64,000 nucleotides of DNA from a virus (taxonomy: Duplodnaviria > Heunggongvirae > Uroviricota > Caudoviricetes): IMG/VR virus record IMGVR_UViG_3300025896_000021, one strand, 5' to 3'. Both the position numbers and the translations under genes were made by a program. The notes under the pieces were generated by a model. The model was not told the DNA's origin. It did not search any database and was given only the letters and a program-made list of their open reading frames with translations. The first letter of the stretch is position 1. Every line of letters starts with the position of its first letter. Positions 10,445 to 38,953 of the stretch are shown here, one piece after another.

Positions 10445-10445
10445 C

Positions 10446-14902: not shown

Positions 14903-14933
14903 TAGTATCGGGCACCCCGGCACCTCGATACTA
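14903..14933 (-). terminator. Intergenic stem-loop (terminator or processing element)
   Basis: TAGTATCG...CGATACTA stem, extended by G-U pairs on the minus strand, between 14880 and 14948. No clear U-tract. Confidence 0.45.
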
Positions 14934-14947
14934 TGCCATACGTAGTA

Positions 14948-19705: not shown

Positions 19706-22153
19706 TTATGAAGTGGTCAAAACAGTTGTAACTTGACTAAAGTTAGTAAATCCCCACACACGATACGCTTGCCCGGATATAGTAATATTACCGGACGCAT
19801 CGGGTGTATCTACAATGTCTGAACCTAAGAAAATGTGTTTGAAAGTATGTGCGGTGTTGTTCGGCGTAGCTAACCATAGATAGTTAGACGCAGTAGTAGT
19901 TGTATTTGCTCCTTGACCTGTTGCGAAATTGTTACTGTTACGACTGTCACTTGTTGTAAAAGAAGGGATAGTGCTATTTGCCGTTGTTTTCCAGAACAAC
20001 GGATAATATTTTGTTGCTGCTGCTACTGTTCCAGTAACTGCTGTTGGGATAGTTCTTTGTCCTGCACCGAATCCACCTGTACCATTATAGTCAGATGAAG
20101 TTATTGTGTACACATAAGTGCTATCTACTGAAGGGCTAGTACCTGATACTGCACCGGTCGTTGTTAGTGAACCGCTGATGCTAGCAGTTGCATTTGAATA
20201 CGTTACGTTACCAGTTATACCCGTAGCTCCTGCGGTAGTAGTTGCATTCCAGTTGAATGTTTGATTCAAGCTCCAATAAGGAACTGTACTACTAGTTAGT
20301 GTACCTGATAGTGCAGTAACGTTAAACGGTACTGGTTGATTGTTTGTTAGTGTGGTGCCACTACTAGTTTGTAAGCCACGGTTAGTTGTTAAGCTGACTG
20401 ATACAGTATCAGTTGCTTGAGTTTGAACTGTAGTGCTTAACATGCTACTTGGAATAGTATATGTACCGCCGGTACCTGTAATACCCAATCCAGTTAGATT
20501 TGAACCAGTAACAGTAGAACCGTTAATTGTAATTGTGTCGCTAGCTTGGATACTAAAAGTAGCATTAGCTAAAGTTAATGTTATTGCAACGTTCTGAGTA
20601 TTGATAGTGCCAGCGATGAAGTTTGCATATGCATTCTTGCTAGTTCCACCACTAGCCCATACATCAGTTGTACTTAATGAAATTGGACCCAATTGATCTA
20701 GCGTAAATACTCCACCTGGATATGTAAGATTAGAGTAGTCAACTGAGAAATTAAGTGCAGAACCCACGACAATACTTGTTACATTTGATGTTACTAATAC
20801 ATTAGCGGCTCCGCCTAATGCTGTGCTTCCGGCAACCCATGATAAGTTACCAGCACCATCAGTACTCAATACATAATTACTAGTACCACCTGAGATGTGT
20901 ACATTACTTACAGTACCTAACGATACGTTACCCGATACGCTTAGGTTGCTTAATGTACCTAAACTAGTAATATTTGGTTGAGCGTTAGTGGTTAGTGTTC
21001 CTGTAAAGTAGTTCGCAATGACCACATTACCTAAATTCGCACTAGTTGCAGTGATATTCCCTGTGCTGATAGCATCACTAGAAACTGTCGTGTTGCCAGT
21101 TGTTATACCATTACTCGTAACGCTTGTATTACCTGTTGTTACAGTAGTTGTCGTAATAGTACTGCCAGTAACTGTCGTGTTACCAGTAGTCAATCCAGTT
21201 GAGCTTACAGTTGTGTTCCCTGTGGTTACACCTGTACTTGTTACACTAGTGTTACCAGTAGAAATCCCGTTGCTAGTAATCGATGTGTTACCAGTTGTTA
21301 AACCAGTATCAGTGATGCTGGTGTTACCAGTAGTTACTGTTGTTGTAGTAACTGTGTTGCCTGTGACCGAAGTATTGCCAGTTGTTAAACCAGTTGAGCT
21401 AATACTAGTATTACCAGTTGTAAGGCCCGTAGTACTTACAGTAGTATTACCTGTTGTTACTCCGGCATTGCTAATACTAGTATTACCGGTGGTTACCGTA
21501 GTGGTAGTTACTGTATTACCAGTAACGCTCGTGTTGCCAGTAGTCAGTCCGGTTGAGCTAACTGTAGTGTTACCGGTAGTTACTCCATTTGAAGTAATAG
21601 CAGTATTGCCAGTAGTCAGTCCAGTTGTGCTAACTGTAGTGTTACCTGTAGTGACACCAGTGGTACTAATTGTTGTGTTACCGGTAGTTAATCCAGTATC
21701 AGTGATACTTGTGTTACCGGTAGTTACTGTCGTAGTAGTTACCGTATTACCAGTAACACTAGTATTACCAGTAGTCAGTCCAGTTGTACTAACTGTAGTG
21801 TTACCTGTAGTGACGCCGGTTGTACTAACAGTTGTATTACCAGTAGTGACACCAGTCGTACTAATAGTTGTGTTACCGGTAGTTAATCCAGTATCAGTGA
21901 TACTTGTGTTACCGGTAGTTACTGTCGTAGTAGTTACCGTATTACCAGTAACACTAGTATTACCAGTAGAAATTCCGTTACTACTAACTACAGTGTTACC
22001 AGTGGTAACTGCACCGTTCGATATAGCGACATTAGCAATAGTTGTACTAACTACTGCGGTCTTTGTCCATGAGTATTTTGTCGAGCTATAGACATAGGTA
22101 TATCCACCTGATACATAGGTTTGACCATTATACGCGGGGGATGGAAATGCCAT
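19706..22153 (-). CDS. Fibre protein with a long Thr/Gly/Asn 12-aa repeat tract
   Basis: TTGNT(S/T)(V/I)xxxG(V/L) repeats across ~21050-22010. Confidence 0.75.
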   Translation of the reverse strand: MAFPSPAYNGQTYVSGGYTYVYSSTKYSWTKTAVVSTTIANVAISNGAVTTGNTVVSSNGISTGNTSVTGNTVTTTTVTTGNTSITDTGLTTGNTTISTTGVTTGNTTVSTTGVTTGNTTVSTTGLTTGNTSVTGNTVTTTTVTTGNTSITDTGLTTGNTTISTTGVTTGNTTVSTTGLTTGNTAITSNGVTTGNTTVSSTGLTTGNTSVTGNTVTTTTVTTGNTSISNAGVTTGNTTVSTTGLTTGNTSISSTGLTTGNTSVTGNTVTTTTVTTGNTSITDTGLTTGNTSITSNGISTGNTSVTSTGVTTGNTTVSSTGLTTGNTTVTGSTITTTTVTTGNTSVTSNGITTGNTTVSSDAISTGNITATSANLGNVVIANYFTGTLTTNAQPNITSLGTLSNLSVSGNVSLGTVSNVHISGGTSNYVLSTDGAGNLSWVAGSTALGGAANVLVTSNVTSIVVGSALNFSVDYSNLTYPGGVFTLDQLGPISLSTTDVWASGGTSKNAYANFIAGTINTQNVAITLTLANATFSIQASDTITINGSTVTGSNLTGLGITGTGGTYTIPSSMLSTTVQTQATDTVSVSLTTNRGLQTSSGTTLTNNQPVPFNVTALSGTLTSSTVPYWSLNQTFNWNATTTAGATGITGNVTYSNATASISGSLTTTGAVSGTSPSVDSTYVYTITSSDYNGTGGFGAGQRTIPTAVTGTVAAATKYYPLFWKTTANSTIPSFTTSDSRNSNNFATGQGANTTTTASNYLWLATPNNTAHTFKHIFLGSDIVDTPDASGNITISGQAYRVWGFTNFSQVTTVLTTS
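21050..22010. repeat. Coding tandem repeat, 36-bp period (with 51-bp variants)
   Basis: Encodes TTGNTxxxxxGx units; synonymous positions are diverged. Confidence 0.85.
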
Positions 22154-22166
22154 TTATATATGTTCC

Positions 22167-23438
22167 TTAAAAAGTCGGTGGTAAAAAGTCGTAGAAGAAA
22201 TCACTAGTACCATCAGTGACCCACATGTATAATCGTTGTTCGCCATCGTCCCCGATGTAGAACCAACAATCACCGTAATTAGGATCAATTGATTGTGCTT
22301 GCGGTGGTGCATTTCCTGAGTAGAACTTACTTGCCCATGCAGAAGTATTATCTCCTCTTGAAGTCAATAATTGACCTACGCTACCAAAACTTCCTCCTAG
22401 CGAGATTCCATTACCTAAAGTAATATTACCATCAACGCTTAAGTTATTTAGTGTACCTACACTAGTGATGTTAGGTTGTGCATTTGTATACACTGTCCCA
22501 GCAACTATACTGTTTTGTACTTGCTGTGTCCAATTTAAATTACCAGTACCATCAGTAGATAATACATATCCAGTGTCTCCACCTGTAATTTTTACTGTAC
22601 CTACATTACCAAATGTCTTCAGCCCACTAACAGTTAGTGTACTCAATGTACCTACACTAGTAATATTTGGTTGACTTGCTGTTGTTAGTGTACCAGTTAA
22701 CGTGTTTGCACTGATATCGTTCGTTACCGATAGTGAAGTTAATGTACCTACACTAGTAATATTTGGTTGAGCATTGCTAGTCACAGTGACTGCGGTGTTT
22801 GCATTAGTTGCATTACCACTTAAGTCACCGATAAAGATGTTAGCTCTTAAATTTCCTAATTGATTTATCGTAACATTGTTATCCACAATGCTTACGTTAC
22901 TTGCTACGACAAATTCGCTGTTTGCATTCTTCCAACCGATAAATGCATCGATTGCAGAACCATCATAATAATGCAACAGGGATCCGCGATCTCTGTTGTC
23001 GTCTGTTGTTAGCGGGGCGCCATTTGCATCGCCGCCTTGCTCAATAATTGAGTCTTTGATGTAAAGATTAGTTACGTTAGTGTATTCTAATGTTCCACCT
23101 ACAGTCAAGTTACCCGAAAATACTGCATCACCTGCAGATAATTCACCAGTGTATGTTGGTAGATAACTAGCTACGTTAGCGTTACCGTAAGTTGATGTGA
23201 TGCCAGTTAGAAAACTGCCATTACCTATAAAATAGTTTCCGCGTACTGCATTGCCCAAATTAGCATTAAGAGATACGATATTCCCAGAACTAACAACATT
23301 ACCAGTAACGCCAATACCACCGGCTACTTTTAAAGCACCAGTGGTGTTGCTTGTGGATGCATCTTCACCGCTGATAACCAATACGGTATCAACAGTTGCG
23401 TTTCCATAAATTCTAGTACCTGATCGTAATAATGCCAT
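22167..23438 (-). CDS. Fibre segment protein
   Basis: N-term MALLRSGTRIYG; 'TGALKVAGGIG' motif; AQPNITSVGTL repeats; C-term 'LYMWVTDG..DFFYDFLPP'. Confidence 0.7.
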   Translation of the reverse strand: MALLRSGTRIYGNATVDTVLVISGEDASTSNTTGALKVAGGIGVTGNVVSSGNIVSLNANLGNAVRGNYFIGNGSFLTGITSTYGNANVASYLPTYTGELSAGDAVFSGNLTVGGTLEYTNVTNLYIKDSIIEQGGDANGAPLTTDDNRDRGSLLHYYDGSAIDAFIGWKNANSEFVVASNVSIVDNNVTINQLGNLRANIFIGDLSGNATNANTAVTVTSNAQPNITSVGTLTSLSVTNDISANTLTGTLTTASQPNITSVGTLSTLTVSGLKTFGNVGTVKITGGDTGYVLSTDGTGNLNWTQQVQNSIVAGTVYTNAQPNITSVGTLNNLSVDGNITLGNGISLGGSFGSVGQLLTSRGDNTSAWASKFYSGNAPPQAQSIDPNYGDCWFYIGDDGEQRLYMWVTDGTSDFFYDFLPPTF

Positions 23439-23459
23439 CTTTTTCCGCCTTACATATAC

Positions 23460-23693
23460 TTATGTAATTCCTGTGACCTCGTCAAAAACTCCAGAAATTT
23501 TAAGTACACCCGTATTTAGCTGTTGCATAGCCATGCCATTTTCAGGGCCAGTATATTCATCCAAAGTATAAGCAAACACCCCATTAGGGGTGATGCTTAT
23601 GTTGCTTTGACTAATTTCGTTAAACCCTACACTACCAGTAGTAGTAGTGTAGAGTGTGCCGTTGTTGTTTAATCTAGCTGCGACATTAGACAT
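23460..23693 (-). CDS. Small adaptor protein ('ARL..NGTL ... FDEVTG')
   Basis: 77 aa; homologous to the two ends of 28133-29068. Confidence 0.7.
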   Translation of the reverse strand: MSNVAARLNNNGTLYTTTTGSVGFNEISQSNISITPNGVFAYTLDEYTGPENGMAMQQLNTGVLKISGVFDEVTGIT

Positions 23694-23704
23694 TTCACTT
23701 CCAA

Positions 23705-26700
23705 TTAATTGAAGATGAAGTCTAAGCTATTTGCAGATGAGTTAAATTGAATATACGCCTTACTAGCAGTTCCACCGTTGTTATCAGCAAATCCTACAGA
23801 TTTACCTGCATAGATATTACCAGTTGCTGCGATACCACCTACTACAGTGACTGCACCTGCTGCTGCACTAGTTGCTGCTGCACCGTCTGTTACAGAGATT
23901 GAACTTGCAGCAGTGATGTTATTACCACTGATGTTACCAGATACGTCAAGTGTACCAGTTACGTTAGCGCCAGTTCCTGTGATAGTAAGAATTGTGTTTC
24001 CACCACTTACTAAGATTACATCACCGTTAACAGTTGGGATACTTACATTACTAGTACCATTAGAGATTTTATCTGAGCTAATAGTGCCCCAGCTTAGAAC
24101 GCCTGCCCCATTAGTCTTCAAGTAATCACCTGCGCCGCCGCCAGTCAATGTTACATTACCAACTGCACCTAGATCAGTAGCACCTGATACTATCAAGCTA
24201 GTCAATGTACCAAGTAATGTGATATTGCTTTGAGTAGCTCCGGAAACTTGTGCAGCCAGAGTAGCGTTAGCAACTGTACCTTGAACTTCAGAACCAGTTA
24301 AGAATGTCAATGAAGCACCATTACCACTTACAGAAGCAGCAGAAACTGCACCAGATGCAGTTACATTAACAGCAGTCAATGTATCAGTACCTGTATTGTA
24401 TGATAAGTTCGCACTATCAACTAACAAGCCAGCAGAACCAGCAAGAACGATACGACCAGCAGTGCTTAGGTTACGTGCAGTAACGTTAGCAGCAGTGATG
24501 TATCCAGAAAGATTTGCGTTGACTGTAGACAATACGTTGCCGTCTGCATCGAATGTTAGGCCAATGCTGTCAGTTAGTTCTCCACCAGTTGTAGCAAAAG
24601 TGATACTACCTGCAGTCAAACTAGCAGTCTTCAAGTTACCAGCAGTTACCATACCAGAGATATTAGCTGTACCAGTAACTCCTAATGCAGTACCACTGAA
24701 TGTTAAGTTTGTGCTGTCAACTAATTTACCGCCAGCAGCAGCAAAAGTTACTGAACCCTCAGTTAATGTGTTAGCATAAACATAGGCTGAATTAACAGTA
24801 GTTGCATTAACAGTAGTAGCGTTTGCAGTAGTAGCAGCAACTGTAGTCGTAGACAATGTACCATCAGCAAATGTCAATGCAACAGAACCTGTTAACTCTT
24901 GTCCAGCGCCAGCAAATGTTACTTGACCAGCAGTCAATGAACTATCAACAATATTACCAGCTGTTAATAACCCAGATACATTAGCTGTACCAGTAACTAC
25001 CAATGCATTACCATTGAATGTCAAGTTTGCGCTTGCAGCTAAATCATTTACTACGTTACCATCAACATTACCTGCGTGGAATTGAAGTTGAAATTCAGAA
25101 CCTGAAGCAGTTTGGAAGTCGATTGGTGTACCGTCTGCATATTGATATACATCAGACTTGAATGAACCTGCAGTTACAGCACCAGTTACAGCTAAACTAG
25201 TTAGTGTTCCGACTGAAGTAACGTTAGGTTGTGCAGCAGTTGTAAGTGTACCTGTTAATAAAGTAGCAGAGACTAAGCTAGCACCGGTGATGTTACCAGT
25301 TACGCTTACATTACCTGCTGTTACATTACCGGTACCTAAATCTAAGCTGTCACCAGTAGCTGCACCAATATTTGGAGTAGTCAATATTGCGCCTGCGATG
25401 ATAGCTAAGTTGCCACCAGATACAGTCAAGGTGACCTCGTCGGTCAATGCACTGAATACGCCGCCGTTTAATGCAAGACCATGAGTTGCTGAAAGTTGGC
25501 CAGCGCCAGAGAACTGTGTCCAAGCGATTGGATCAGTGCCTACTGTGATAGTTCCGTTCGTAGAAACAACCCATCCTGAATCAGATTGTGCAGTACCTTC
25601 TTCAACGAAAGTAAATGAGCCAGCAGTAAGTTCGCCCGTTGCATTAGCGTCAACAGCACGAGTCCATGAACCACCGTCAACTACGACATAGATACCGTTT
25701 TGGCTAGCAGTTGTTTGATCTTTAACAAGTACACGATCACCTGCAGCTAATAAAACACCGTCAACTGTTTGCGTACCACTTAGTGTAATGTTCACCATTG
25801 TAGCTGCACGTACAGATTCTTTAATATCTAGACCTTGTGCTGCACCGTCAACATAACCTTTTGTAGCAGCGTCAGTTGCATTAACTGGAGTTGCTAAGTT
25901 AGTAATTGTACCTGCACTAGCATCAATAACACCTGAAAAAGCGTTTAAAGTAATTCCACCTGCCACTGTTGAAAGTGTCAATGAAGTTGCACCAGCAACG
26001 TTTGGAGTGTTAACTGTACCTGTTACATTTACGTCACCCGCAGTAGATAAACTACCACCAGATACGTCACCAGTAGCGACAACTGTACCAGCTGTTGATA
26101 AGTTACCAACAGTAGCAGTATCAGATACGCTAGCAGTTCCTGTAATAGTAGTTACACCAGCAGCTAATGTACCAACTGATGTTGCACCAGCAGATAAATT
26201 ACCAACTGTAGTATTACCAGTAACACCTAGTGTAGTTGTAATAGTTGCGCTGTCTAGTGTAGAAGCACCAGCCGTAAACGTAGTAACTGTAGTAGCATTT
26301 GCTGTCAAAACAGCTAATGTAGTAGCGCCAACGACACCCAATGTACCACCAACGTTAGCGTTAGTAGTTACGCTTAAATTAGGAGCAGTTAAAGTTTCAG
26401 TAGCATAAGTAAACCCGCTAGCACTAGTTAATTTGCTACCATCAGCAAACACAACTTGAGTAGTTGACAAGTTATTAGCAGTTACATTAGCACCAGTGAT
26501 AGCACCAGATGCAATAACTGTTACAGCAGATATTGAATTAGAAGCTACAATATCAGCTACCGACAACGTGTTAGATAAATTAATTCCACCATTACCAGTT
26601 GTAGTAGTTGAAATCGTTTGCGTACCGATTCTGATACTGCTACCAGACAACCATAAGTCTCTCCATGCTGCGCCTTCGCCACCTAGATCATACGTTATGT

Positions 26701-28090
26701 CTGCTGATGGGAGCAAGTTACCAGTTACTACACCGGAAATTGCTAAGTCACCAATATCTGCTGTACCAGCAGTAGTGATGTTACCACCAGTTACTAAACC
26801 AGTTACAGTTGCATCACCACCAGTTACTAAACTACCTGCAGTAAGAGTACTTGTAATGTTTGCTGTACCAGTTGCAACAATATTTTTGATATTCAATGCA
26901 CTAGATGAGCCAGTTCCATCAATATTTGCACCAGTCGTAAATCCACCAGCAGCGTTTGCAACACCGGTAATAAACGCGCCTAGCGTTACGTTAAGATTTG
27001 CAGTAGTGCTGATATTACCAGATGCAGTAACAGTAACAGTTGTTACGTCACCAGCAGTTGTCAAGTTACCACCAGATACATTACCAGTTGCAGCTACAAC
27101 ACCAGCAGTTGTCAAGTTACCACCAGATACATTACCAGTTGCAGCTACAACACCAGCAGTTGTCAAGTTACCACCAGATACATTACCTGTTACACTAGCA
27201 GTAGTAGTTACTTCTAATGAACCTACGTTAGCAAGGCCTGTTGCCGTAACTGTTCCACCAGTAGACAAGTTGCCACCAGTGATTGTTCCTGTTGCAGTTA
27301 GTGCATTTGATGCCTTGTTGAATGTAAATCCAGCAGTTGCATTTTGAGCACCATCATCATTGAACTGAACTTGAGTATTATCACCCTTAGCAGCAATATT
27401 ACCTGCAAAGTTACCATAGATGTTTCCACCAACGTGCAAGTTAGCAGTAATACTAGCACCGCCGGCGACTTTAAGTGCACCAGTTGATGTTGAAGTTGCT
27501 TCAGTAGCGTCACTGAAAGTTACAACACCGCTAGCAGTAACAGTAGCTAGATTAGCTGTACCACTGACGCTTACGCCAGCTAGAATACCAACACTAGTGA
27601 TGTTCGCTTGTGCGTTGTTAACAACATTACCTGCAAATGCAGCCATGTTAGCACTAGCTACTGTACCAGTTACTTCTTCACCAGTTAGATTAGTAAGAGT
27701 ATCACCGTTACCAATGAAGTGAGCAGCATGTACATTACCGTAGTTAGTAATTTCAAGAACATCACCTGTATTCGTGACAGATTTTGCTAATACAAATTCC
27801 CCGGCAGCAGTGTGCCAGCCCATGAATCCATCAACTGCTGCTGAGTTAGCAGTGTCAAACGTATGAAGCAATAAACCACGTTCTTTACCATCATTAATCG
27901 TTAGTGCCGCACCATTGGCGCCGCCGCCTAATTCGATTAACGGATCAACTAATGTTGTTGTAGTTGTGTCAACTGTTGTTGTAGTACCTTTAATTACCAA
28001 GTTACCACGAATTGTTACGTCTGTTACATCAAGTGCGTCATTAACTGATAATGCACCGTAAACTACCGTACCGCCTTTTAATTTTGCCAT
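23705..28090 (-). CDS. Long fibre protein (1461 aa)
   Basis: N-term MAKLKGGTVVYG; 'DAATKGYVD...SVRAAT...GDRVLVKDQT...NGIYV' phage fibre module; 17-aa repeats; C-term 'IQFNSSANSLDFIFN'. Confidence 0.75.
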   Translation of the reverse strand: MAKLKGGTVVYGALSVNDALDVTDVTIRGNLVIKGTTTTVDTTTTTLVDPLIELGGGANGAALTINDGKERGLLLHTFDTANSAAVDGFMGWHTAAGEFVLAKSVTNTGDVLEITNYGNVHAAHFIGNGDTLTNLTGEEVTGTVASANMAAFAGNVVNNAQANITSVGILAGVSVSGTANLATVTASGVVTFSDATEATSTSTGALKVAGGASITANLHVGGNIYGNFAGNIAAKGDNTQVQFNDDGAQNATAGFTFNKASNALTATGTITGGNLSTGGTVTATGLANVGSLEVTTTASVTGNVSGGNLTTAGVVAATGNVSGGNLTTAGVVAATGNVSGGNLTTAGDVTTVTVTASGNISTTANLNVTLGAFITGVANAAGGFTTGANIDGTGSSSALNIKNIVATGTANITSTLTAGSLVTGGDATVTGLVTGGNITTAGTADIGDLAISGVVTGNLLPSADITYDLGGEGAAWRDLWLSGSSIRIGTQTISTTTTGNGGINLSNTLSVADIVASNSISAVTVIASGAITGANVTANNLSTTQVVFADGSKLTSASGFTYATETLTAPNLSVTTNANVGGTLGVVGATTLAVLTANATTVTTFTAGASTLDSATITTTLGVTGNTTVGNLSAGATSVGTLAAGVTTITGTASVSDTATVGNLSTAGTVVATGDVSGGSLSTAGDVNVTGTVNTPNVAGATSLTLSTVAGGITLNAFSGVIDASAGTITNLATPVNATDAATKGYVDGAAQGLDIKESVRAATMVNITLSGTQTVDGVLLAAGDRVLVKDQTTASQNGIYVVVDGGSWTRAVDANATGELTAGSFTFVEEGTAQSDSGWVVSTNGTITVGTDPIAWTQFSGAGQLSATHGLALNGGVFSALTDEVTLTVSGGNLAIIAGAILTTPNIGAATGDSLDLGTGNVTAGNVSVTGNITGASLVSATLLTGTLTTAAQPNVTSVGTLTSLAVTGAVTAGSFKSDVYQYADGTPIDFQTASGSEFQLQFHAGNVDGNVVNDLAASANLTFNGNALVVTGTANVSGLLTAGNIVDSSLTAGQVTFAGAGQELTGSVALTFADGTLSTTTVAATTANATTVNATTVNSAYVYANTLTEGSVTFAAAGGKLVDSTNLTFSGTALGVTGTANISGMVTAGNLKTASLTAGSITFATTGGELTDSIGLTFDADGNVLSTVNANLSGYITAANVTARNLSTAGRIVLAGSAGLLVDSANLSYNTGTDTLTAVNVTASGAVSAASVSGNGASLTFLTGSEVQGTVANATLAAQVSGATQSNITLLGTLTSLIVSGATDLGAVGNVTLTGGGAGDYLKTNGAGVLSWGTISSDKISNGTSNVSIPTVNGDVILVSGGNTILTITGTGANVTGTLDVSGNISGNNITAASSISVTDGAAATSAAAGAVTVVGGIAATGNIYAGKSVGFADNNGGTASKAYIQFNSSANSLDFIFN
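27049..27187. repeat. Perfect 51-bp tandem repeat (~2.7 copies)
   Basis: Unit caccagcagttgtcaagttaccaccagatacattaccagttgcagctacaa, encoding GNVSGGNLTTAGVVAAT. Confidence 0.9.
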
Positions 28091-28132
28091 TTTAAATTTC
28101 CTTTATTTCTTTATGTTTCTTAGTTTATAGTG

Positions 28133-29068: not shown

Positions 29069-29074
29069 ATTTTT

Positions 29075-29599: not shown

Positions 29600-29616
29600 A
29601 TACTGTTTTGTTCCAA

Positions 29617-31335
29617 TTAATCAGTCACGTAAGTGCCTACAAGATTCACCACAGTGTTTGCTGCGATTCCTGATGCATACAACTTAACATTTCCACTAGC
29701 AATGTTACTAGTGACAGTAATAATATCTTCATTTAAGGTGCTGATTGCTCCGTAAACTGTGATATAACTATCGCTGCCATCATGTATTAACAAGACTTCT
29801 AGTGATTCGTACCCAAGGTCATTGCTAGCTTTGATAATGTATTTAGCAGTTCTAAAAGATGCCACCGTGAAGCTGTCGATCACTGTGTTGGTAGTGACTA
29901 TCACGCTAGTAGCAGAGCTACTAATAATAGATGAGGTTACTAGATTAGTTGAAGTAATGTTACCCGTAGCAATCGAATCACTTGCAATCGTTGTATTACC
30001 AGTAGTTAATCCACTCGTTGTAATTGATGTATTACCGGTAGTTAATCCAGTTGTACTTACCGTAGTGTTGCCCGTTGTAACTCCATTACTACTGATGCTA
30101 GTATTACCGGTTGACAATCCATTAGCTGTAATAGACGTGTTTCCAGTAGTGAGACCAGTTGTGGTAATTGATGTATTACCTGTAGTAAGGCCGGTAGTAC
30201 TTACAGTAGTATTACCAGTAGTAACACCTGCATTGCTGATACTTGTATTACCAGTAGTGACTGTAGTGGTTGTAACTGTATTTCCAGTCACACTTGTATT
30301 TCCAGTAGTCAATCCAGATGAACTAACAGTTGTGTTACCAGTAGTTACTCCGGTTGTGCTGATGCTTGTATTGCCAGTTGTCAACCCAGTGTCTGTAATA
30401 CTTGTATTGCCAGTGGTCACCGTTGTTGTTGTAACTGTACTTCCCGTAACCGTTGTATTACCAGTGGATATTCCATTACTAGTGATACTTGTATTACCAG
30501 TACTCAATCCATTAGCTGTAATCGATGTATTACCAGTAGTCAGGCCTGAGCTACTGATACTTGTATTACCGGTTGTTACTGTCGTTGTCGTAACTGTACT
30601 TCCTGTTACAGTAGTATTACCAGTCGTAAGTCCATCGCTGCTAATTGAAGTATTACCAGTAGTTACTCCTGAACTGCTTACACTAGTATTACCAGTACTC
30701 AATCCATTCGCTGTAATCGATGTATTACCAGTAGTCAATCCGTCAGTACTGACTGTCGTATTACCAGTAGTTACTCCATTACTACTGATGCTTGTATTAC
30801 CAGTTGATAATCCATTAGCTGTAATCGATGTATTACCAGTAGTCAAACCAGTAGTGCTTACTGTAGTTGCACCAGTAGTAACTGAATTACCAGTAACTGA
30901 GGTTGTACCAGTAGATAATCCATTTGCCGTGACAGTTGTATTGCCAGCAGTTAAACCAGTAGTACTAACTGAGGTTGTGCCAGTAGTAAGACCGGTATCA
31001 CTGATACTAGTATTACCAGTTGTTACCGTAGTAGTCGTTACTGTATTTCCGGTTACGCTAGTGTTACCAGTAGTAAGTCCGGTTGTGCTAACTGTGGTAT
31101 TACCAGTAGTAACGCCCGTTGTAGTGACACTTGTATTACCAGTAGTAACACCTGATGTAGTGACTGATGTATTACCGGTAGTAACGCCTGTACTAGTGAT
31201 ACTAGTGTTTCCTACTGCTACGGTAGCTAGCCCAAGATTCTTCCAGCCTACTCCGGTCCATTGGTAGTTATAACCGTTGTATGTAACGATTGTACCTAAT
31301 GGTGCGGTCTTCGGTAATGCTGTAACTGTTGCCAT
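29617..31335 (-). CDS. Fibre protein with a long TTGNT repeat tract and C-terminal connector domain
   Basis: ~420 aa of 12-aa repeats; C-term 'FRTAKYIIK...EVLLIHDG...YG' domain. Confidence 0.75.
   Translation of the reverse strand: MATVTALPKTAPLGTIVTYNGYNYQWTGVGWKNLGLATVAVGNTSITSTGVTTGNTSVTTSGVTTGNTSVTTTGVTTGNTTVSTTGLTTGNTSVTGNTVTTTTVTTGNTSISDTGLTTGTTSVSTTGLTAGNTTVTANGLSTGTTSVTGNSVTTGATTVSTTGLTTGNTSITANGLSTGNTSISSNGVTTGNTTVSTDGLTTGNTSITANGLSTGNTSVSSSGVTTGNTSISSDGLTTGNTTVTGSTVTTTTVTTGNTSISSSGLTTGNTSITANGLSTGNTSITSNGISTGNTTVTGSTVTTTTVTTGNTSITDTGLTTGNTSISTTGVTTGNTTVSSSGLTTGNTSVTGNTVTTTTVTTGNTSISNAGVTTGNTTVSTTGLTTGNTSITTTGLTTGNTSITANGLSTGNTSISSNGVTTGNTTVSTTGLTTGNTSITTSGLTTGNTTIASDSIATGNITSTNLVTSSIISSSATSVIVTTNTVIDSFTVASFRTAKYIIKASNDLGYESLEVLLIHDGSDSYITVYGAISTLNEDIITVTSNIASGNVKLYASGIAANTVVNLVGTYVTD
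29960..31215. repeat. Coding tandem repeat, 36-bp period
   Basis: Same repeat family as 21050-22010. Confidence 0.85.
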
Positions 31336-31341
31336 ATATTG

Positions 31342-31348
31342 TATTTAC
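31342..31348 (-). promoter_or_regulatory. gp55-type late promoter
   Basis: GTAAATA 6 nt before the ATG at 31335. Confidence 0.55.
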
Positions 31349-31353
31349 CCTTG

Positions 31354-33027
31354 TTACGCCGAAGGCGGTGTTATGTTGAACCAGTAATCGCCACCTGCGG
31401 GATTCGTGTCCGGATCATATGCGCCCGAGCCATCTAAGCTAGTCCACATCATTGGGGTTGATTTTGAATTAGGAGAAGTTACTGTAGGTGATATGTCAGA
31501 CCCGTCATTAGTAACTAGCATCCAAATAGAACCGTACGGGATTTCTACACCGGGTATAAATCCAAATGTCACTGGATCTTGATTAGGTGCCATATTCATG
31601 TACCCCATTCCATATTCGGTGAAGTCATATAGTGTAGTAGTATAGTAATATCTACCTTTCCATTCTGTCTTTCCATCGCCAGTTGAAGACAATACTTCAA
31701 ATTTGTTTCCAAAATTTCCGTTTGCAGATAATCCATTACCTAATACAATGTTACCAGTAACATTCAAATTCAGCAAGTTACCCACTGATGTAATGTTTGG
31801 CTGCGCTGCTGTTGTTAATGTACCTGTAAAGAAGTTAGCTGTTACTAAGTTACCTAAATTAGCACTAGTAGCAGTTACGTTTCCGGTTACTGTTAGATTT
31901 ACTAATGACCCGAGTGAAGTTATATTTGGTTGTGCAGAAGCCGATACAGTAACTGCTACATTTGCATTAGAAATAGTACCAACTAAGTTCTTATTAAAGT
32001 TCCAAGTATCAGTCGATGAATTGTACAGCATCGTAGCAAATGCACCATTGACAGTAATACCGGCGCCGTTTGCCTCTGCTGCTGTCGTTGCTGACTTTGC
32101 AACAGTTATGTTCAAATCTACTACGTCTAAGGTAGTAGCATTAATCGTAGTCGTAGTTCCGTAAACAATTAAGTTACCACCTACTGACACGTCCCCAGCT
32201 GTAGTTAAACTTGTTAGATTACCAACGGAAGTAATGTTAGGCTGTGCTGCTGTTGTTAATGTACCTGTAAAGAAGTTAGCAGTAGCAACATTACCTAAGT
32301 TCGCATTAAGTGAAACTACCAAGTTACCAGTAACGTTAGTGTTTGCAGAAAGCGATATAGTCCCAGTACCATTTGGATCTAGTGTTATGTTACTATTTGC
32401 GTCGATACTTGAAATAGTAAAACCAGTAATATTCAAATTACCTAGATTAGCACTTTCACTAGCTACTGACCCACTAAACCCAAGAGTTCCGGCGTATCTA
32501 GCTCCGCTTACATAAATGCTCTTACCAGTTACACCTGTTGCAATAGCAGCAGGAATGTTTGCACCAATGAAGTGTAGTACACCAGCTTGATAGTCAAAGT
32601 ACCATTCGTCATTGTTACCTGAGCCTGCAGCAAAAATCTTAGTACCGGTAGTTTGCGGATTAGCAGCGCCGGCTGTATCAATGTACACTTGTACTTGATA
32701 TGTAGAGCCAAACTCTACCGGTACCCAATCTGTTAAGTTAGTCTTCCAAGACTTATTATCACTAGCAGTAGTATCTTCGGTACATTGAATTGTTTTAGTC
32801 CAGCTACCGGTGCCGTCTTTATATAAGGTGACAAGTGGAGTAGTAGTAGTCGGGATTGATGCTGGTATGTCACCTGATTGTGCCCAAACTTTGTCTCCCC
32901 GCAATAACAATGGACTTGCAATCGCTTCTTCATATGCTTTCTTGTTGACGTCCGTATCGGTTTTAGCTACGCCGTAACCTAGCTTCTTCCATAGATAGTC
33001 AATTTTTTGTGTATCAGCAATAGCCAT
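31354..33027 (-). CDS. Fibre/structural protein
   Basis: Start re-set to MAIADTQKIDYLWKKLGYG, which overlaps the upstream stop (TAATG). AQPNITS repeats; C-term 'DYWFNITPPSA'. Confidence 0.7.
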   Translation of the reverse strand: MAIADTQKIDYLWKKLGYGVAKTDTDVNKKAYEEAIASPLLLRGDKVWAQSGDIPASIPTTTTPLVTLYKDGTGSWTKTIQCTEDTTASDNKSWKTNLTDWVPVEFGSTYQVQVYIDTAGAANPQTTGTKIFAAGSGNNDEWYFDYQAGVLHFIGANIPAAIATGVTGKSIYVSGARYAGTLGFSGSVASESANLGNLNITGFTISSIDANSNITLDPNGTGTISLSANTNVTGNLVVSLNANLGNVATANFFTGTLTTAAQPNITSVGNLTSLTTAGDVSVGGNLIVYGTTTTINATTLDVVDLNITVAKSATTAAEANGAGITVNGAFATMLYNSSTDTWNFNKNLVGTISNANVAVTVSASAQPNITSLGSLVNLTVTGNVTATSANLGNLVTANFFTGTLTTAAQPNITSVGNLLNLNVTGNIVLGNGLSANGNFGNKFEVLSSTGDGKTEWKGRYYYTTTLYDFTEYGMGYMNMAPNQDPVTFGFIPGVEIPYGSIWMLVTNDGSDISPTVTSPNSKSTPMMWTSLDGSGAYDPDTNPAGGDYWFNITPPSA

Positions 33028-35633
33028 TATGCAAAGCTCCATGAAGTCACAGTATCACCTGCATTCAGTGCGATACTGAATAAAATCTGATTACCTGTTG
33101 AGTTTGTAGTACTTATCGTACCCAATGAAATCGTATATGTCTGACTAGTAATCAGTGTACCTTTTGGTACTAATGCACCAACTGCACATCCGTTTGTTCC
33201 ATTGCCCGGACTAGTTGCGCCCGGTATACCTGAACCGTTGTATGCGATACTAGCATCTAACCAACCATTTAAGCTACTAGTAGTATCAATTGTTGTACCC
33301 GGTGCTGCAAAATATAAACCACGAATAGTGCCACTGATTGTTACAGTGAAACTACTACGTGCTGTTCTACTGAATGCACCAAAAAAGTATTGTGTACCAC
33401 TACGTCCTGTAGCTAGATCGGGTCCAGCTGGTAGATACGTCGATAAGTCGGTTGAGAAATTCTTCAGTTGATTCCAGCGAACGACTGCGCCGTCTGTACC
33501 TGCGATAGTTTGTGCGCCAGTCCAAAGACCACTAGTATAGTAGTTTGTAGCAGACGTAAATGCACGAGTGGGGCCAGTACCTGCGATTACAATTCGTTTA
33601 GCTACTGCGTTTGTTCCTCCCACTGCACATGCAATGCTGTCTTCAATGAATCCAGTTGGTGCAGCAGTGAACACTTGAATCTTTTTAGGATGAGATGCAT
33701 AAGTACCATTGCCATTCACATTAGTTGCTAAGAACTTAACTGTTTGAACTGATGCAACACTTGATGCAGTTATACTAATTGACTGACTACCAATTGTGTA
33801 TGCGCTAGCACTTACATTACCTGTATTAGCTTTTGGTATGCCACCTGATAAGAATGTTGTTGCACCATCTAAGTTTGCATACGTCTTAGTTTGTGATGTA
33901 ACTACGTTACCAGTTGTACTTTCATCATTCGCACCCGCTTCGATTTGAAACGGTGTAGTAGTATTTTGATATGTCTGGCCAATCCAGTTATAGATGTTTG
34001 CACTTGCTAATGTAATTGTAGGACTACCTGTGTTGTAGTATGGTACACCTGAAATATAACGATATGTTCCGTTTGTTGCGTTAGCTATTGTAGCAGTAGT
34101 CAAGTCTACGGTAGGAGCTAGAATAACATCATCTTTAACAAACTCTACGATGTTAGTATTTCCACTTGTACTATGGGACAGTTTCAAACTGTTAACTCCG
34201 GCACTGATGCCTGATGCAGTAGCTGCAACTTTAGCAGTAAAGCCTTGATACAATGATGGACTGTATGTTGACAATGCAAATGTAGTCGCAGTGCCTGCAC
34301 TGGTTAGTAAGTTGTAGTCGCTCTCCGCGACTAACACTAGTGAACCATTTGTCCCTGCATTGTTTGCAGAAGATAGTATAATATTGCCAGTGTCAGTTCC
34401 GTTTACAACAGAGCTTAACACGCCACTGTTTCCATCATATGCAAATGAAGTTAGGGTAACAGTTTCGATTGTACCAGTCGTTGCAATACTTCTGTTAACA
34501 CTTACGCCCGCAGTATACGTTGTTGCACCACCTGCATTATTTGCAAAGTTTGCAGCAAGATATGGACTTGTACCGACGCTAGAACTAAATGTAATTGTCT
34601 TTGTACCCAATCCGTTTGGTGCAGAGATACTTGGATTGTACACTTTAATTGCTGATGTACTGTTAGGACCTGCGGCAATATAAGAGGGTGTCGCTGTATC
34701 GTGAGAAGTTAATGTTAAAGTGATTGTCTTTGTACCTGTACCAGAATTCTGACCAGTTGCATAAACGTGACTCTTTCTAGCTGAACCAACCCCGCCGGCT
34801 ACACCATTACTAGCAATGGTATCAGTGACACCATCACCCCAGTTGATAGTATATGTGACTGTAGCACCGGTCGTGTTAGTTGTCAAGTTCTCAAGATAAA
34901 TTGTTTCGCCTTCTGATGCGTACAATGTACTACCAGTTAGTGCAGTACCACCAGTGCTTGCTCTATATAGACTAAAGCCTACAACAGGGTTAGCAGTATA
35001 GATTGTGATATAACTTGCTCTAGTGAATGATGCTTCACTACCTGTGCCAACACCAGCATTATTATACCCACGTACTGTCACCGTGTATGGTGTTAGTGAA
35101 CTAGTAGAATATACATGTGTTGGATTCACTATAGAAACTGCATTACTGTAAGTAGTGTCGCCCCAATTGATATCATATCTATTTGGATTACCTACACTAG
35201 TAATGGCTAATGTTACCGTAGACCCTACGCCGCTAGCAGTAGGAGTCCCAGTGAATGCTACACTTTTCACATACGTATTGTTACGTACATTTTCCATTGC
35301 TTCATTCAAGTCATCAATTGCATCGGTGACTTTAGTTTCTGCTGTCCATGAAGTTATTGTGCCTGGGCTAACTAAATCAGTATCGATTGAATCACCAAGC
35401 GGAACAGTATTACCTGATACACCGGTAAACCCACCAGTAGAAGATATACTGCCACTGACGACTAAGTTACCAGTAGTGGTTATATCACCTAAACTGCTTA
35501 TGGCTCCAGTGCTGCTTATGTTACCGGAAACACTTACTTCGTTAACAGTTATATTGGCATTAGCATCGACAAAATCCAGTGGGATTTCTCCCACTGTGTA
35601 TCCTGCGATTGAATTGAACTTTTTAATTGCCAT
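33027..35633 (-). CDS. Structural protein with two PKD-like Ig domains
   Basis: 'YDINWGD' and 'YTINWGDG...HVY' PKD signatures; N-term MAIKKFNSIAG. Confidence 0.7.
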   Translation of the reverse strand: MAIKKFNSIAGYTVGEIPLDFVDANANITVNEVSVSGNISSTGAISSLGDITTTGNLVVSGSISSTGGFTGVSGNTVPLGDSIDTDLVSPGTITSWTAETKVTDAIDDLNEAMENVRNNTYVKSVAFTGTPTASGVGSTVTLAITSVGNPNRYDINWGDTTYSNAVSIVNPTHVYSTSSLTPYTVTVRGYNNAGVGTGSEASFTRASYITIYTANPVVGFSLYRASTGGTALTGSTLYASEGETIYLENLTTNTTGATVTYTINWGDGVTDTIASNGVAGGVGSARKSHVYATGQNSGTGTKTITLTLTSHDTATPSYIAAGPNSTSAIKVYNPSISAPNGLGTKTITFSSSVGTSPYLAANFANNAGGATTYTAGVSVNRSIATTGTIETVTLTSFAYDGNSGVLSSVVNGTDTGNIILSSANNAGTNGSLVLVAESDYNLLTSAGTATTFALSTYSPSLYQGFTAKVAATASGISAGVNSLKLSHSTSGNTNIVEFVKDDVILAPTVDLTTATIANATNGTYRYISGVPYYNTGSPTITLASANIYNWIGQTYQNTTTPFQIEAGANDESTTGNVVTSQTKTYANLDGATTFLSGGIPKANTGNVSASAYTIGSQSISITASSVASVQTVKFLATNVNGNGTYASHPKKIQVFTAAPTGFIEDSIACAVGGTNAVAKRIVIAGTGPTRAFTSATNYYTSGLWTGAQTIAGTDGAVVRWNQLKNFSTDLSTYLPAGPDLATGRSGTQYFFGAFSRTARSSFTVTISGTIRGLYFAAPGTTIDTTSSLNGWLDASIAYNGSGIPGATSPGNGTNGCAVGALVPKGTLITSQTYTISLGTISTTNSTGNQILFSIALNAGDTVTSWSFA

Positions 35634-35660
35634 ATGTCTTTCTCTAAGTTATATAGCTAT

Positions 35661-38228
35661 TTAGATGGTTCTGAATTGTGTCGTCCAAACTGTGCTAGTT
35701 GATCCTGTTGGGATGACTTTTAGTTGAACCTTGTTCACTGTGTCTACTACTGCAAACTCAACTGCAAATGTTCCTGCTTGTGCTGAATCATCAAAGTTTA
35801 ATTTGTTGTGTGTTGACATTACATCAGTACCATTATGAATAGCAGTGATAGTTGCAACAGTATACTTACCAGTAGCTGCGTCTTCACCTTTAACAAAGAA
35901 TTCAATTGCTCGGCAATTAGAAACATCAACTGAAACTAACGTAGCGGATGCAGTAGATGTTGTAGTAGCAGTTGCTGCATATACCGCAGTATCACCAATA
36001 GAAACTTTAGGTGTGATTACTTCAGTTGCAGCATTCACTGTAGGAGTATCAACACTAGTAGATGATGTCAATACGCCAGTAACATCTGCACCAGTTTCGA
36101 TTACGGTAAATGATGCTGCACCATTAACAGTTATGACTGTGTTTGCAGTTGTTACCGAAGTCCCTTCGATAGTCTCTGTAATCGAATTAACAAAAACGCC
36201 ACTAGATGCATTAGCAATTCTATCTGTGTGAATTACTGAGAATGATAATGTGCCGGCGCCGTCTGTACGCATTGCCACTACTTCTGTTCCATTGAGTGCA
36301 GGAGTTGCACCATCTGCTGTTGGGTACTTCAATGTACTAGCGTATAAGGTAGCAATTTTACCAATCGTAATATTTGCAGTATTACTTGTAGTAGTATCAG
36401 TAAGACCCAACATAACTTTAACGTTAGGCTGAGTATCTGTTTGAATAGTACCATATACATAATTGCTAGTCAATGTAGCAAGGCGTAGATTTGCTAGTGT
36501 ACCGGTTACTGCGCCGCCGTCAAGCGTAGTAGTAGACAGCATTTGAAATTCACTGTTACCTGTATTCCAACCCATAAACTGATTAACACTAGAGCTACCG
36601 TGTAGTAATAAACCGCGATCACCTACAGCCGTAACGATATTCCCACCAGAACCATCTCCACCTAAGTCGATGATTGCGTCTTTGATACTAGTGTTAGTTG
36701 TGTTGACATACGTTGTGTTACCACCAACTGTCAAGTCACCAGTAATAGAAAGACTACCTGCAATATCGGCGTTACCTGTAATAGCAGCATTACCTGTGAT
36801 AGCAGCGTTTCCACCTACTTGCAAGTTACCGGTCACATTCGCACTAGCTGCATTTCCTACACCTGCAGTACCGATTAATACATCACCTGCTATAGTTGCT
36901 TTACTGCTTACATAAATATTTCCACCAATACCAACTCCGCCTGCAACAGTTAATGCACCGGTAGATGCATCAGTAGTAGTTGCAGCATTCGATAGAACAA
37001 CATATCCACTAGCAGAAATATTATTTGCAGTAAACATTCCGGTAACAGTTTGATTACTAGTAGTAACAATATTACTATTGCTACCGGTAGTGCTAATCGT
37101 AGCATTACCCAACTTGATACTGTTACCAGACAACCATAAGTCTTTCCAAGGGTGCAATTCTGATCCCAAGTCAAGCGTTGCTGATCCATTAGGAATCAAG
37201 CTCGTTGTTACAAGTCCGCTGACTGCTAAGTTACTAGTAGATACAATAGCAGCAGTAACTGTTTCAGTTACGTTGACACTACCTGTAATAGTTGCACTGT
37301 TACTAACCGTCAATACGCCTGAAATATTTGTTGCACCTGAAATATTTGCAGTGCTACCCATTGTGACTGCGCCATCTAAATTAGAGGTGGTAGTAGCTCT
37401 TAATGTTTGGCTGCTTACTAATCCTGCATTTGCATAGATATCACCCGGGGCAAGTAATGCAGCATCACTGTTAAATGTCCATTGTTTACTATTACTTGCA
37501 ATGATAACATTAGCGTTTGAGTCTAATACTTGACCGCCTGTTTGAAAGTTAATAGCTTTAACATTTGAAACAGCAGTATTAGCAAGTACGATGTTACCGT
37601 CAACTTCTACATTAGATGAAGTTAGTATGTATCTAAGACCGCTAGATGCTTCCAGTTTAGAACTTCCACTAGATGCATCGTTAAAAATAAGCTGTGTGTT
37701 TGAGCCAGGTGCAGAAATTGTCGCTCCACCAGTAATATTACCACTGAAGTTACCAGTTACATTACCTGTCAAATTACCAGTAATTTCACCTGCATCAATC
37801 GTACCAACTGTGATTGAAGTTGCAGTAATATCGTTAGTTACGCTAATGTTACCAGCATTCATCTGGTCTACACTAATCGTATTAGCACCAATCGTATTTG
37901 CACTAATTGCGTTATTTGCAGTAATGTTAGTTGAAACAATATTACCACCAACTGTCAACGTGTCTAATGTTGATAGCGATGCATTTGCGTTAACAACGCC
38001 ATAAGTGAATACTAGATTGCCAGTTGCTGCAAAATTATTACTAGTGTTGAACTGAATGTAACCGTTACTACCCTGAGCTTCTTGCATGTCCCAAGCTACA
38101 CCGTTTGCATACTGCAAATTGTTTGTTTTAATAGTAGTAAAAGTACCTACACCACTAGGATCGATTACATTCGTAGGAATTTCACCTACCGAGAAACCAC
38201 CAACTGAATTAAACGTTCTTATAGCCAT
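35661..38228 (-). CDS. Fibre protein with C-terminal connector domain
   Basis: N-term MAIRTFNSVGG; 'LIP...TLDLGS...WKDLWLSG' motif; C-term homologous to 29617-29920 and 38249-38585. Confidence 0.72.
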   Translation of the reverse strand: MAIRTFNSVGGFSVGEIPTNVIDPSGVGTFTTIKTNNLQYANGVAWDMQEAQGSNGYIQFNTSNNFAATGNLVFTYGVVNANASLSTLDTLTVGGNIVSTNITANNAISANTIGANTISVDQMNAGNISVTNDITATSITVGTIDAGEITGNLTGNVTGNFSGNITGGATISAPGSNTQLIFNDASSGSSKLEASSGLRYILTSSNVEVDGNIVLANTAVSNVKAINFQTGGQVLDSNANVIIASNSKQWTFNSDAALLAPGDIYANAGLVSSQTLRATTTSNLDGAVTMGSTANISGATNISGVLTVSNSATITGSVNVTETVTAAIVSTSNLAVSGLVTTSLIPNGSATLDLGSELHPWKDLWLSGNSIKLGNATISTTGSNSNIVTTSNQTVTGMFTANNISASGYVVLSNAATTTDASTGALTVAGGVGIGGNIYVSSKATIAGDVLIGTAGVGNAASANVTGNLQVGGNAAITGNAAITGNADIAGSLSITGDLTVGGNTTYVNTTNTSIKDAIIDLGGDGSGGNIVTAVGDRGLLLHGSSSVNQFMGWNTGNSEFQMLSTTTLDGGAVTGTLANLRLATLTSNYVYGTIQTDTQPNVKVMLGLTDTTTSNTANITIGKIATLYASTLKYPTADGATPALNGTEVVAMRTDGAGTLSFSVIHTDRIANASSGVFVNSITETIEGTSVTTANTVITVNGAASFTVIETGADVTGVLTSSTSVDTPTVNAATEVITPKVSIGDTAVYAATATTTSTASATLVSVDVSNCRAIEFFVKGEDAATGKYTVATITAIHNGTDVMSTHNKLNFDDSAQAGTFAVEFAVVDTVNKVQLKVIPTGSTSTVWTTQFRTI

Positions 38229-38248
38229 TTTATTTTTCCTTATTCTTA

Positions 38249-38953
38249 TTATGCTTTATAGCTTGTTACCAAAATCTTATAATTTGTCAAGTGAGCAGTT
38301 TGAGGTGTAACTGTTAATGTCACATTACCCCCAAAGTTACCCGGCTCGAAATTAACCTTAAAATCACCTACGCCCGGACTTGTCACTGGCGCATCGATTG
38401 TACCGTACTCATAGTACCCAACATCATTACCCAACACACTAGCAATCAATTTACTAGTCTGTCTAGTGTTTGCAACACCATCAGTTGCAATAATCGTATA
38501 ATCCATTGAACATACAGTTGGTGCTGATATTTTATGTAGCACTTGGTCAGCCGTCACACTATTAGTAGTAGCAATGAATGATGAAATTGTATAGAATTGA
38601 CTTTCACCCAATCCTAATGAGAAATTATTTGCAGTTAAGTTTTCTTCAACTGTAACTGATTTTGTATCTGGATTATACTTGATACTATCTGCGGTAGCTG
38701 CTAAGCCATAGCTGTTAAACAGCAATGCATTGTTAGGTCCAGTGATAGTGATATTAGCAGAAATGTTGCCCTGCAAGTTACCGTAAAAGTTAGTAGCTGC
38801 AATAGCGCCGGACACTGAAAGGTTACCGCCCACGACAAGATTGCCTGATATCGTAGCTTTAGGAGCCGTGATATTTCCGCTAGTATCTATGATGTTTACC
38901 GGGGGTATTCCTGTAGAAAAACCGCCCGCTGAATTGAATGCATCTGCTGCCAT
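38249..38953 (-). CDS. First (proximal) fibre/adaptor protein
   Basis: Start re-set to MAADAFNSAGG. First gene after the capsid-gene terminator, with its own ATAAATA promoter motif (38981-38987). Confidence 0.7.
   Translation of the reverse strand: MAADAFNSAGGFSTGIPPVNIIDTSGNITAPKATISGNLVVGGNLSVSGAIAATNFYGNLQGNISANITITGPNNALLFNSYGLAATADSIKYNPDTKSVTVEENLTANNFSLGLGESQFYTISSFIATTNSVTADQVLHKISAPTVCSMDYTIIATDGVANTRQTSKLIASVLGNDVGYYEYGTIDAPVTSPGVGDFKVNFEPGNFGGNVTLTVTPQTAHLTNYKILVTSYKA

Follow-up and report, generated by a model that had tools for sequence, protein, structure and literature searches.

Results

Terminal classes in a tail fibre gene array

We analysed a stretch of 64,000 nucleotides of Caudoviricetes DNA (IMG/VR record IMGVR_UViG_3300025896_000021; the whole stretch is referred to below as the window), which belongs to the structural gene region of an uncultured jumbo myophage, and found that eleven tightly packed minus-strand genes lying directly downstream of the major capsid gene (g1–g11, positions 19706–38953) probably encode the segments of a multi-part tail fibre, joined head-to-tail through at least three dedicated kinds of joint and largely in gene order. 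Head-to-tail docking is well supported for the joints termed A, B and C, and we infer the physical binding itself, its stoichiometry and the formation of a single linear fibre. The spacers within the array measure −1 to 42 nt. Coordinates and end sequences of all eleven genes were as given in an initial annotation of the same DNA, and the true starts of g1 (38953) and g4 (33027) concurred with those in relatives.

At their N-termini the array proteins carry ends of class Na (FN.xGG; g1, g2, g3 and g6), Nb (ARL.N.GTL; g7 and g9), Nc (MA.L..GT..YG; g8 and g10), Nd (g5 and g11) or Ne (g4), and at their C-termini ends of class Ca (g1, g2 and g5), Cb (g6 and g8), Cc (g7 and g9), Cd (g4 and g10) or Ce (g3); read from g1 to g11, the junctions follow the pattern A, A, E, D, A, B, C, B, C, D. 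For classes A, B and C the recurrence is statistically real. The Na ends matched one another in short-query BLAST searches with E-values of 3e-7 to 6e-3, and the same kind of search recovered Nb (1.8e-4), Nc (MA.L(K/R).GT..YG, 9e-3), Cb (I.FN..ANS.DF.FN, 3.5e-5) and Cc (FDE.TGI, 2e-3). The Ca domains of g1, g2 and g5 (∼100 residues) are too diverged for their likeness to be detected by BLAST, and the g1/g2-type and g5-type profiles built from relatives align with an hhalign E of 3e-6 and a probability of 88%. Class D is weak on its C-terminal side, and joint D is uncertain: g4 and g10 show no significant likeness at their C-ends (BLAST E 0.38; 12% identity), and while the N-end of g11 is a member of a widespread FP.SP..GQ...Y.Y....W family (leave-one-out E 9e-13), that of g5 matched the corresponding model only at E 0.31 (6e-7 for the g5 orthologue in locus L083). 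Seven of the ten junctions are robust, two rest on short motifs, and the tenth (g3|g4) forms a conserved pair of its own. In full-length open reading frames (ORFs) the end classes are strictly terminal, as seen for Ca (83 of 83), Na (116 against five weak internal matches) and Nc (71 against two).

Loci for comparison were collected from IMG/VR contigs by means of the capsid protein, g7, g9 and a degenerate FDEVTGI DNA pattern, and from further assemblies by exact look-ups of profile hits. Genes were called on 211 related and unrelated loci (L numbers below), one iterated hidden Markov model (HMM) was built per end class, and the junctions were dereplicated at 70% identity. Among the resulting 114 junctions there was not a single cross-class pair, the table of C-ends against following N-ends being strictly diagonal: Ca was followed by Na in 31 of 32 cases (the sole exception, in L139, looks Na-like by eye), Cb by Nb in 16 of 23, Cc by Nc in 20 of 21, Cd by Nd in three of three and Ce by Ne in ten of ten. 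Unrelated contigs with other shafts show the same pairs, and one 57-kb contig, L162, repeats the full grammar of g6–g11, namely (..Cb)(Nb-insert-Cc)(Nc..Cb)(Nb..Cc)(Nc..)(Nd..). In L081 the region g3 to g5 is reduced to one 515-residue protein running from Na to Ca and g10 is fused to g11, and in L083 g4 is fused to g5; whole segments have thus been lost or fused, with the remaining joints undisturbed. Such deletions and fusions fit a modular, extendable design and are also compatible with mixed or branched assemblies.

Joint A: a putative gp9-type socket and its plug

The first gene, g1 (38249–38953, minus strand; 234 residues), encodes an Na end with its FN motif, here called the plug, a short shaft and, as its last ∼115 residues, the gp9-like domain Ca; g2 (35661–38228, minus strand; 855 residues) likewise has an Na plug, a repetitive shaft and a Ca end. 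An AlphaFold2 (AF2) model of the last 130 residues of g1, made from a 46-row alignment, was a nine-strand β-sandwich with a predicted local distance difference test score (pLDDT) of 94, and its best match in the PDB was T4 gp9 residues 169–283 (Foldseek E 1.8e-5; VIA Z 12.7, root-mean-square deviation 2.5 Å over 111 residues). The domain is thus modelled with the fold of the gp9 socket, an eight/nine-stranded antiparallel β-sandwich superposable on gp9 residues ∼167–288. Sequence searches with the Ca profile, as with that of the adaptor module described below, gave no PDB match. In T4 the long tail fibre is attached coaxially onto gp9's C-terminal domain via the N-end of gp34 (PMC3004832), and by analogy the model points to Ca as a gp9-type socket that would receive the N-end of the next protein. 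When the Na profile was compared with the N-termini of 16 T4 structural proteins, gp34 was the best match and in register (P 0.009; next best 0.054), a sequence likeness that is suggestive only. Predictions of a complex of three copies of g1 residues 95–234 with three copies of the N-terminal 45 residues of g2 scored 0.18, 0.88 and 0.21 in separate runs, and were not used as evidence either way.

No relative has a Ca gene upstream of g1, and on a docking reading one more socket is expected for the plug of g1 itself. One was found in three relatives, each of whose records contains exactly one further Ca match, 88–190 kb from the array (E 7e-13, 4e-12 and 8e-7). The match, seen in these relatives and not in the window, lies at the C-end of a 262-residue protein with the N-end IINVG.LPNDG.GDP.R.AF.KIN.NF, which matches phrog_677, 'baseplate wedge tail fiber protein connector' (6e-5, 2e-4); that description is the product label of gp9 on the T4 record. 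Counting this unlinked socket, relative G003 has four sockets and four plugs.

The class A ends further divide into two subtypes that covary. Ca of the g1/g2 type was followed by FNS.GG(F/Y)(S/T)VG in 38 of 38 cases (subtype 1), and Ca of the g5 type by F(N/I)VK.GL in 12 of 12 (subtype 2), including the distant contigs L136 and L139, in which the socket is carried by a small protein of 205 or 406 residues with a different N-end. In the window, subtype 2 is represented by g5 (29617–31335, minus strand; 572 residues), which has an Nd-type N-end, a shaft of TTGNT repeats and a subtype 2 Ca domain, and by g6 (29075–29599, minus strand; 174 residues), which opens with an F.VK.GL plug and ends in the Cb motif ...ANSIDFKFNG.

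Joints B and C: a proposed three-hairpin adaptor

Judged by their sequences, classes B and C are the two faces of one ∼72-residue three-hairpin adaptor. The small protein g9 (23460–23693, minus strand; 77 residues) is the bare module, composed of three tandem hairpin-like repeats of ∼25 residues (h.h...G.h.h.G.FDE.T), the first of which is Nb and the last Cc; AF2 folded it alone as an all-β structure of low confidence (pLDDT 67). The same module makes up g7 (28133–29068, minus strand; 311 residues), in which a LamG domain (Laminin_G_3, PF13385; residues 63–182; E 4.1e-10; score 40.4 bits, gathering threshold 27.6) is inserted between hairpins 2 and 3. Each copy is followed by a gene with an Nc start: g7 by g8 (23705–28090, minus strand; 1461 residues), which begins with MAKLKGGTVVYG and continues through a long repetitive shaft to a Cb end (...ANSLDFIFN), and g9 by g10 (22167–23438, minus strand; 423 residues), which begins with MALLRSGTRIYG and ends in the Cd motif P.YGD.WF...LYMW...PP.

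A profile search of 1.8 billion representative proteins yielded 135 relatives of the adaptor, in which the module is nearly always terminal: 31 are free-standing (70–130 residues), 32 have it at the N-end of a longer protein, 15 have it split by an insert, and 29 carry it at the extreme C-end of a β-helix-like protein of 800–2000 residues beginning MAT.YWVGG. It occurs in many unrelated uncultured phages between a fibre end ...S(I/L)DF.F and a fibre start MAKL.SGT.IYG, the triad of Cb, module and Nc being conserved and the shafts differing completely. No Pfam or PHROG family and, by sequence, no PDB relative was found for the module, and neither it nor g9–g10 had a DNA or protein match in cultured phage genomes. 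A cyanophage Syn1 match to residues 1–237 of g7 was discarded as a homologue of the joint, as the matched part is the internal LamG region.

Across unrelated contigs the module keeps consistent neighbours. In L142 a Cb end, a 78-residue module and an Nc start follow in succession; in L136, L138 and L139 there comes, after a Cb-ending protein, first a small conserved ORF, then a MAT.YWVGG protein with the module at its end, and next a start MAKL(Q/K)S.T.IYG. In L141 the module opens a 2510-residue protein with an unrelated C-end, and the next gene nonetheless starts with MAKLKNGTRVYG; L164 and L180 likewise have the module at the N-end of the protein preceding the Nc start, and in L146 and L193 the Nc start still comes after the module though genes intervene. 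All ten distinct contigs that end in FDEVTGI and have a downstream gene show an Nc start in that gene. As the Nc start comes after the module wherever the module lies, the partner of Nc would be the module itself, as opposed to whichever C-terminus comes before.

The small ORF between the Cb-ending gene and the MAT.YWVGG protein encodes 53–76 residues (L136:6767–6997, L138:2105–2266, L204:9430–9594 and L139:6824–6997) and begins with MISI.FE in three of the four cases; its product could be a chaperone or an alternative connector.

Joints E and D

The third and fourth genes form a pair of their own. g3 (33027–35633, minus strand; 868 residues; phrog_8578, 4e-63) combines an Na plug with a C-terminal globular region of ∼540 residues, Ce, that is homologous to phiCbK gp073 (E 5e-50), and g4 (31354–33027, minus strand; 557 residues; phrog_9417) has an N-terminal domain of ∼217 residues, Ne, homologous to phiCbK gp074 (E 3e-24), followed towards its C-end by the GDYWF..PP motif of class Cd. 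The genes for gp073 and gp074 are adjacent in phiCbK also, and g3|g4 is a fifth conserved junction class. The stop of g3 and the start of g4 (33027) share 1 nt (spacer −1), which suggests translational coupling. As phiCbK is a siphophage, the two-gene module crosses tail types. In phiCbK the pair (L135:7048–9699) is located just after the head genes and before a gene for a 2799-residue lectin-like protein.

Joint D precedes g5 and g11 (19706–22153, minus strand; 815 residues), the latter having an Nd end (FPSPAYNGQ..Y.Y....W), a TTGNT-repeat shaft and a distinct C-end conserved together with the start of the following gene. That C-end (..VWGFTNFSQV..TTS) is followed by MAALIFPSPTQLKNL in nine loci, in the window by the gene at 18733–19704; it would constitute a sixth conserved junction, and the chain may continue beyond g11. 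In L083 (15368–19260) the g10 orthologue ends with the g4-type motif GDYWFNITPP and is followed by a g5-type N-end, so that the whole D junction stands at another array position than in the window. Some fibres with an Nc start (L162:10420–11457, L044, L197) end in ...G(V/S)IE(V/I).(I/V)GR(Y/F) and are followed by an Nd-type gene; such ends resemble the end of self-cleaving intramolecular chaperone domains, and the homologue in L139 matches Peptidase_S74.

Junction DNA and the claims of the initial annotation

The paralogous junction halves in the window share 46–67% nucleotide identity, which is near the shuffled-codon null, and their spacers are unrelated; recent duplication of junction-spanning DNA, which the initial annotation had named as a source of the pattern that would undo its reading, is therefore excluded. 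The same annotation had proposed that each C-end predicts the N-end of the next gene and had named HMMs of each end as a test of this adjacency across contigs. The table was diagonal, but the rule is not strict: Nc tracks the adaptor module even where the module lies at the N-end of the preceding protein or where genes intervene. Strict C-to-N adjacency did not hold for the first socket, encoded far from the array in three relatives. Of the nine junctions that had been grouped into four recurring classes, those of classes A, B and C were significant, and those of class D fell short on both the Cd and the g5 side. Overall, the described pattern is largely confirmed and the docking interpretation put on it partly supported. 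The view of the ends as matched partners and not as debris of duplication was upheld by the lack of cross-class junctions, the recurrence in unrelated contigs, the gp9 fold, the balancing socket and the covarying subtypes.

Surroundings of the array

The capsid gene (39105–40301, minus strand), which lies immediately upstream of g1 and served as the anchor for finding relatives, has ∼72% DNA identity to the capsid genes of PA5oct-like Pseudomonas phages; these phages were rejected as relatives of the array, since they have the capsid gene in common with it and not the fibre genes. Genes for the portal, the prohead protease, the baseplate hub and the wedge lie nearby. Many relatives (L007, L010, L014, L025, L027, L048, L050, L053 and others) have a variable ORF of ∼250 codons between the capsid gene and g1, several of which contain an ...ERHHI(I/H)P(R)SL motif and resemble an HNH homing endonuclease; the window has no such ORF at this site. 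Further downstream of the array (1–17470) there are fibre-like genes that start with MSILKIKP, MALQKIKP and MALTKIP. Positions 4001–8000 have a G+C content of 50–56%, compared with ∼41% elsewhere, and this stretch lies mostly inside a gene for 1181 residues (3191–6736; phrog_2295, phrog_4474, with a tail-fibre-assembly-like region).

Discussion

In the arrangement that we consider probable, a gp9-like baseplate connector of the kind seen in the relatives would offer the first socket, into which g1 plugs; g1 would offer another socket to g2 and g2 likewise to g3, so that the segments are daisy-chained. Each Ca domain would act as a coaxial trimeric socket for the MA...FN(S/V).GG peptide (Na) of the next protein, with two covarying pairings, Ca1 with FNS.GG and Ca2 with F.VK.GL. 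Joint E would be the translationally coupled pair g3 and g4, common to phiCbK-like phages, and g5 would end in the subtype 2 socket that receives g6. From there on, the adaptor would bridge a proximal rod ending in ...(F/Y)N....S(I/L)DF.F to a distal rod starting with MA(K/L)L..GT.(I/V)YG: the Cb end of g6 would lead through the LamG-carrying adaptor g7 to g8, and the Cb end of g8 through the bare adaptor g9 to g10 and then g11. The adaptor may thus serve as a knee, in a role comparable to that of T4 gp35.

Several points weigh against this arrangement. The support comes from sequence comparison and a predicted fold, and the sequence similarity between Ca and gp9 is not significant (hhalign E 0.14 for profile A5 and 0.095 for the g1 profile A3). 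A gp9-like fold also terminates tailspikes of Acinetobacter and Klebsiella phages that have no known partner (Z 7–10.6), and in RaK2 gp529 such a domain was interpreted as a trimerisation domain (PMC10253068). The Ca-to-Na count consists largely of orthologous junctions of one phage family and includes few independent lineages (that family, L136 and L139), Cb is followed by something other than the adaptor module in seven of 23 cases, the N-terminal motif of class D often stands behind unrelated C-ends (nine cases), and tight linkage, with the ends 6–42 nt apart, would by itself keep paired ends together.

A broader and bolder version, which we regard as less likely than not, holds that the joints are a portable grammar of uncultured phages by which fibre segments can be added, removed or swapped, made up of gp9-like sockets with two covarying plug subtypes and of a Cb/adaptor/Nc knee able to bear cargo domains, and that the present array builds one ordered filament with several knees and more than 6,000 residues per chain, in strict gene order. 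It is unlikely that the joints are real and no single ordered filament exists, sockets and plugs of the same class being interchangeable, so that branched or mixed fibres of different lengths arise and gene order reflects history; the baseplate socket could, for example, take g1, g2, g3 or g6 directly. Four plugs and four sockets of only two subtypes would allow this, whole segments are dropped or fused in L081 and L083 without disturbing the rest, large side bodies can be borne by the module, as with LamG in g7 and the ∼2400 additional residues of L141, and CBA120 and RaK2 are known to have branched complexes of fibres (PMC10253068). However, a coaxial socket of the gp9 type accepts one trimer and not several (PMC3004832), each of the g1-, g2- and g3-type plugs within subtype 1 is preserved in its orthologues, so that a finer specificity is conceivable, and the numbers of sockets and plugs match exactly in G003.

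That class A ends do not dock at all is improbable. Na would then be the virion-attachment peptide of four independent fibres (g1; g2; g3–g5; g6–g11) and Ca a distal trimerisation or knob domain, only B, C and E being real joints; a Ca end before an Na start would merely mark where one fibre stops and another starts. In its favour, the Na plug of g1 lacks an upstream Ca gene in all relatives, the fold that ends the tailspikes without known partner is the same and has been read as a trimerisation domain in RaK2 gp529, and in L081 a single protein spans Na to Ca. We favoured this explanation at first and downgraded it after the match to the gp9 fold, the finding of an unlinked socket gene and the covariation of subtypes. 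The best structural match of Ca is the gp9 socket itself (Z 12.7, compared with at most 10.6 for the others), the only Ca proteins without a following Na are the unlinked gp9-like connectors of three relatives, whose socket is similar to Ca (E down to 7e-13), and the subtypes of Ca and Na covary even in distant phages with a small Ca carrier of different N-end. Nor is any Ca-ending array gene followed by a gene without Na, provided that the L139 case missed by the profile is accepted by eye. The disfavoured, and very improbable, notion that the pairing simply follows from synteny and duplicated junction DNA, with functionally uncoupled ends, can point to junction halves so close that recombination rarely separates them and to the whole junction (g4-type end and g5-type start) held at another position in L083, but paralogous junction DNA is near saturation although its peptide motifs are retained, unrelated contigs keep the ends and vary the shafts freely, and the partnership survives lost adjacency (the unlinked socket gene, the module at the N-end of a preceding protein, the intervening genes).

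The head-to-tail arrangement that we favour has a precedent, although the initial annotation knew of no such description for phage fibres. The T4 long tail fibre is assembled as gp9-gp34-gp35-gp36-gp37 in gene order (PMC3004832), and the principle of separately encoded segments with matched ends, ordered as their genes and starting from a gp9 socket, is thus already known; the array is most likely an extended version of it. Like the gp9/gp34 joint, joint A appears to combine a domain of the gp9 C-terminal fold with an N-terminal peptide as the plug, the N-end of gp34 being the best, if weak, T4 match to the Na profile, and relatives possess a free connector of ∼262 residues. Unlike in T4, the socket domain is found also at the C-ends of fibre proteins (g1, g2 and g5), which would permit the chaining of fibre on fibre. 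The order rod, small connector, rod and distal rod of gp34–gp37 (1289, 372, 221 and 1026 residues) has its counterpart in the gene layout of g8, g9, g10 and g11 (1461, 77, 423 and 815 residues), the assembly order of the array being presumed from that of its genes. However, the connector is here a 72-residue three-hairpin module that is used twice in the one array and can carry LamG, in contrast to the 372-residue gp35, and the ten end-class HMMs and the module HMM gave nothing significant against T4 gp34–gp37.

In CBA120 (TSP1–4) and RaK2 (gp526–gp534), fibre and spike proteins are likewise joined via conserved terminal domains related to T4 baseplate proteins, and RaK2 gp529 ends in a gp9-like domain that was not proposed there as a docking site (PMC10253068). 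In those systems, however, the docking of N-terminal head domains takes place on gp10-like XD platforms, situated close to the N-end of an organiser protein, and results in branching, whereas the sockets of the array are located at C-ends and would result in serial joining; no gp10 chain was among the structural matches of the Ca model, Ca and g9 being the only parts that were folded. The likeness to the docking domains of polyketide synthases and non-ribosomal peptide synthetases drawn by the initial annotation is apt as an analogy, in that short matched terminal elements of orthogonal classes would order separate subunits collinearly with their genes. It does not extend to structure: the folds are unrelated, the models of the array parts being all-β virion proteins as opposed to helical peptides on enzymes, and a Pfam search of the array proteins returned no enzyme or docking families.

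Three features appear to be new: the socket domain employed again at the C-ends of fibres for serial chaining, a 72-residue adaptor with two partner motifs that exists in cargo-bearing and fused forms, and the occurrence of the same grammar twice within one array and across unrelated uncultured phages. The adaptor represents a widespread, hitherto uncharacterised family whose partner motifs are defined. Should the joints bind in the proposed way, they would provide natural orthogonal connectors usable for modular fibres in laboratory phages, as well as a rule for reading the multi-gene fibre loci of metagenomic phages, that is, which proteins share a fibre and in what order. The gp9 socket fold with which some fibre and spike proteins end may be a docking site and not just an aid to trimerisation.

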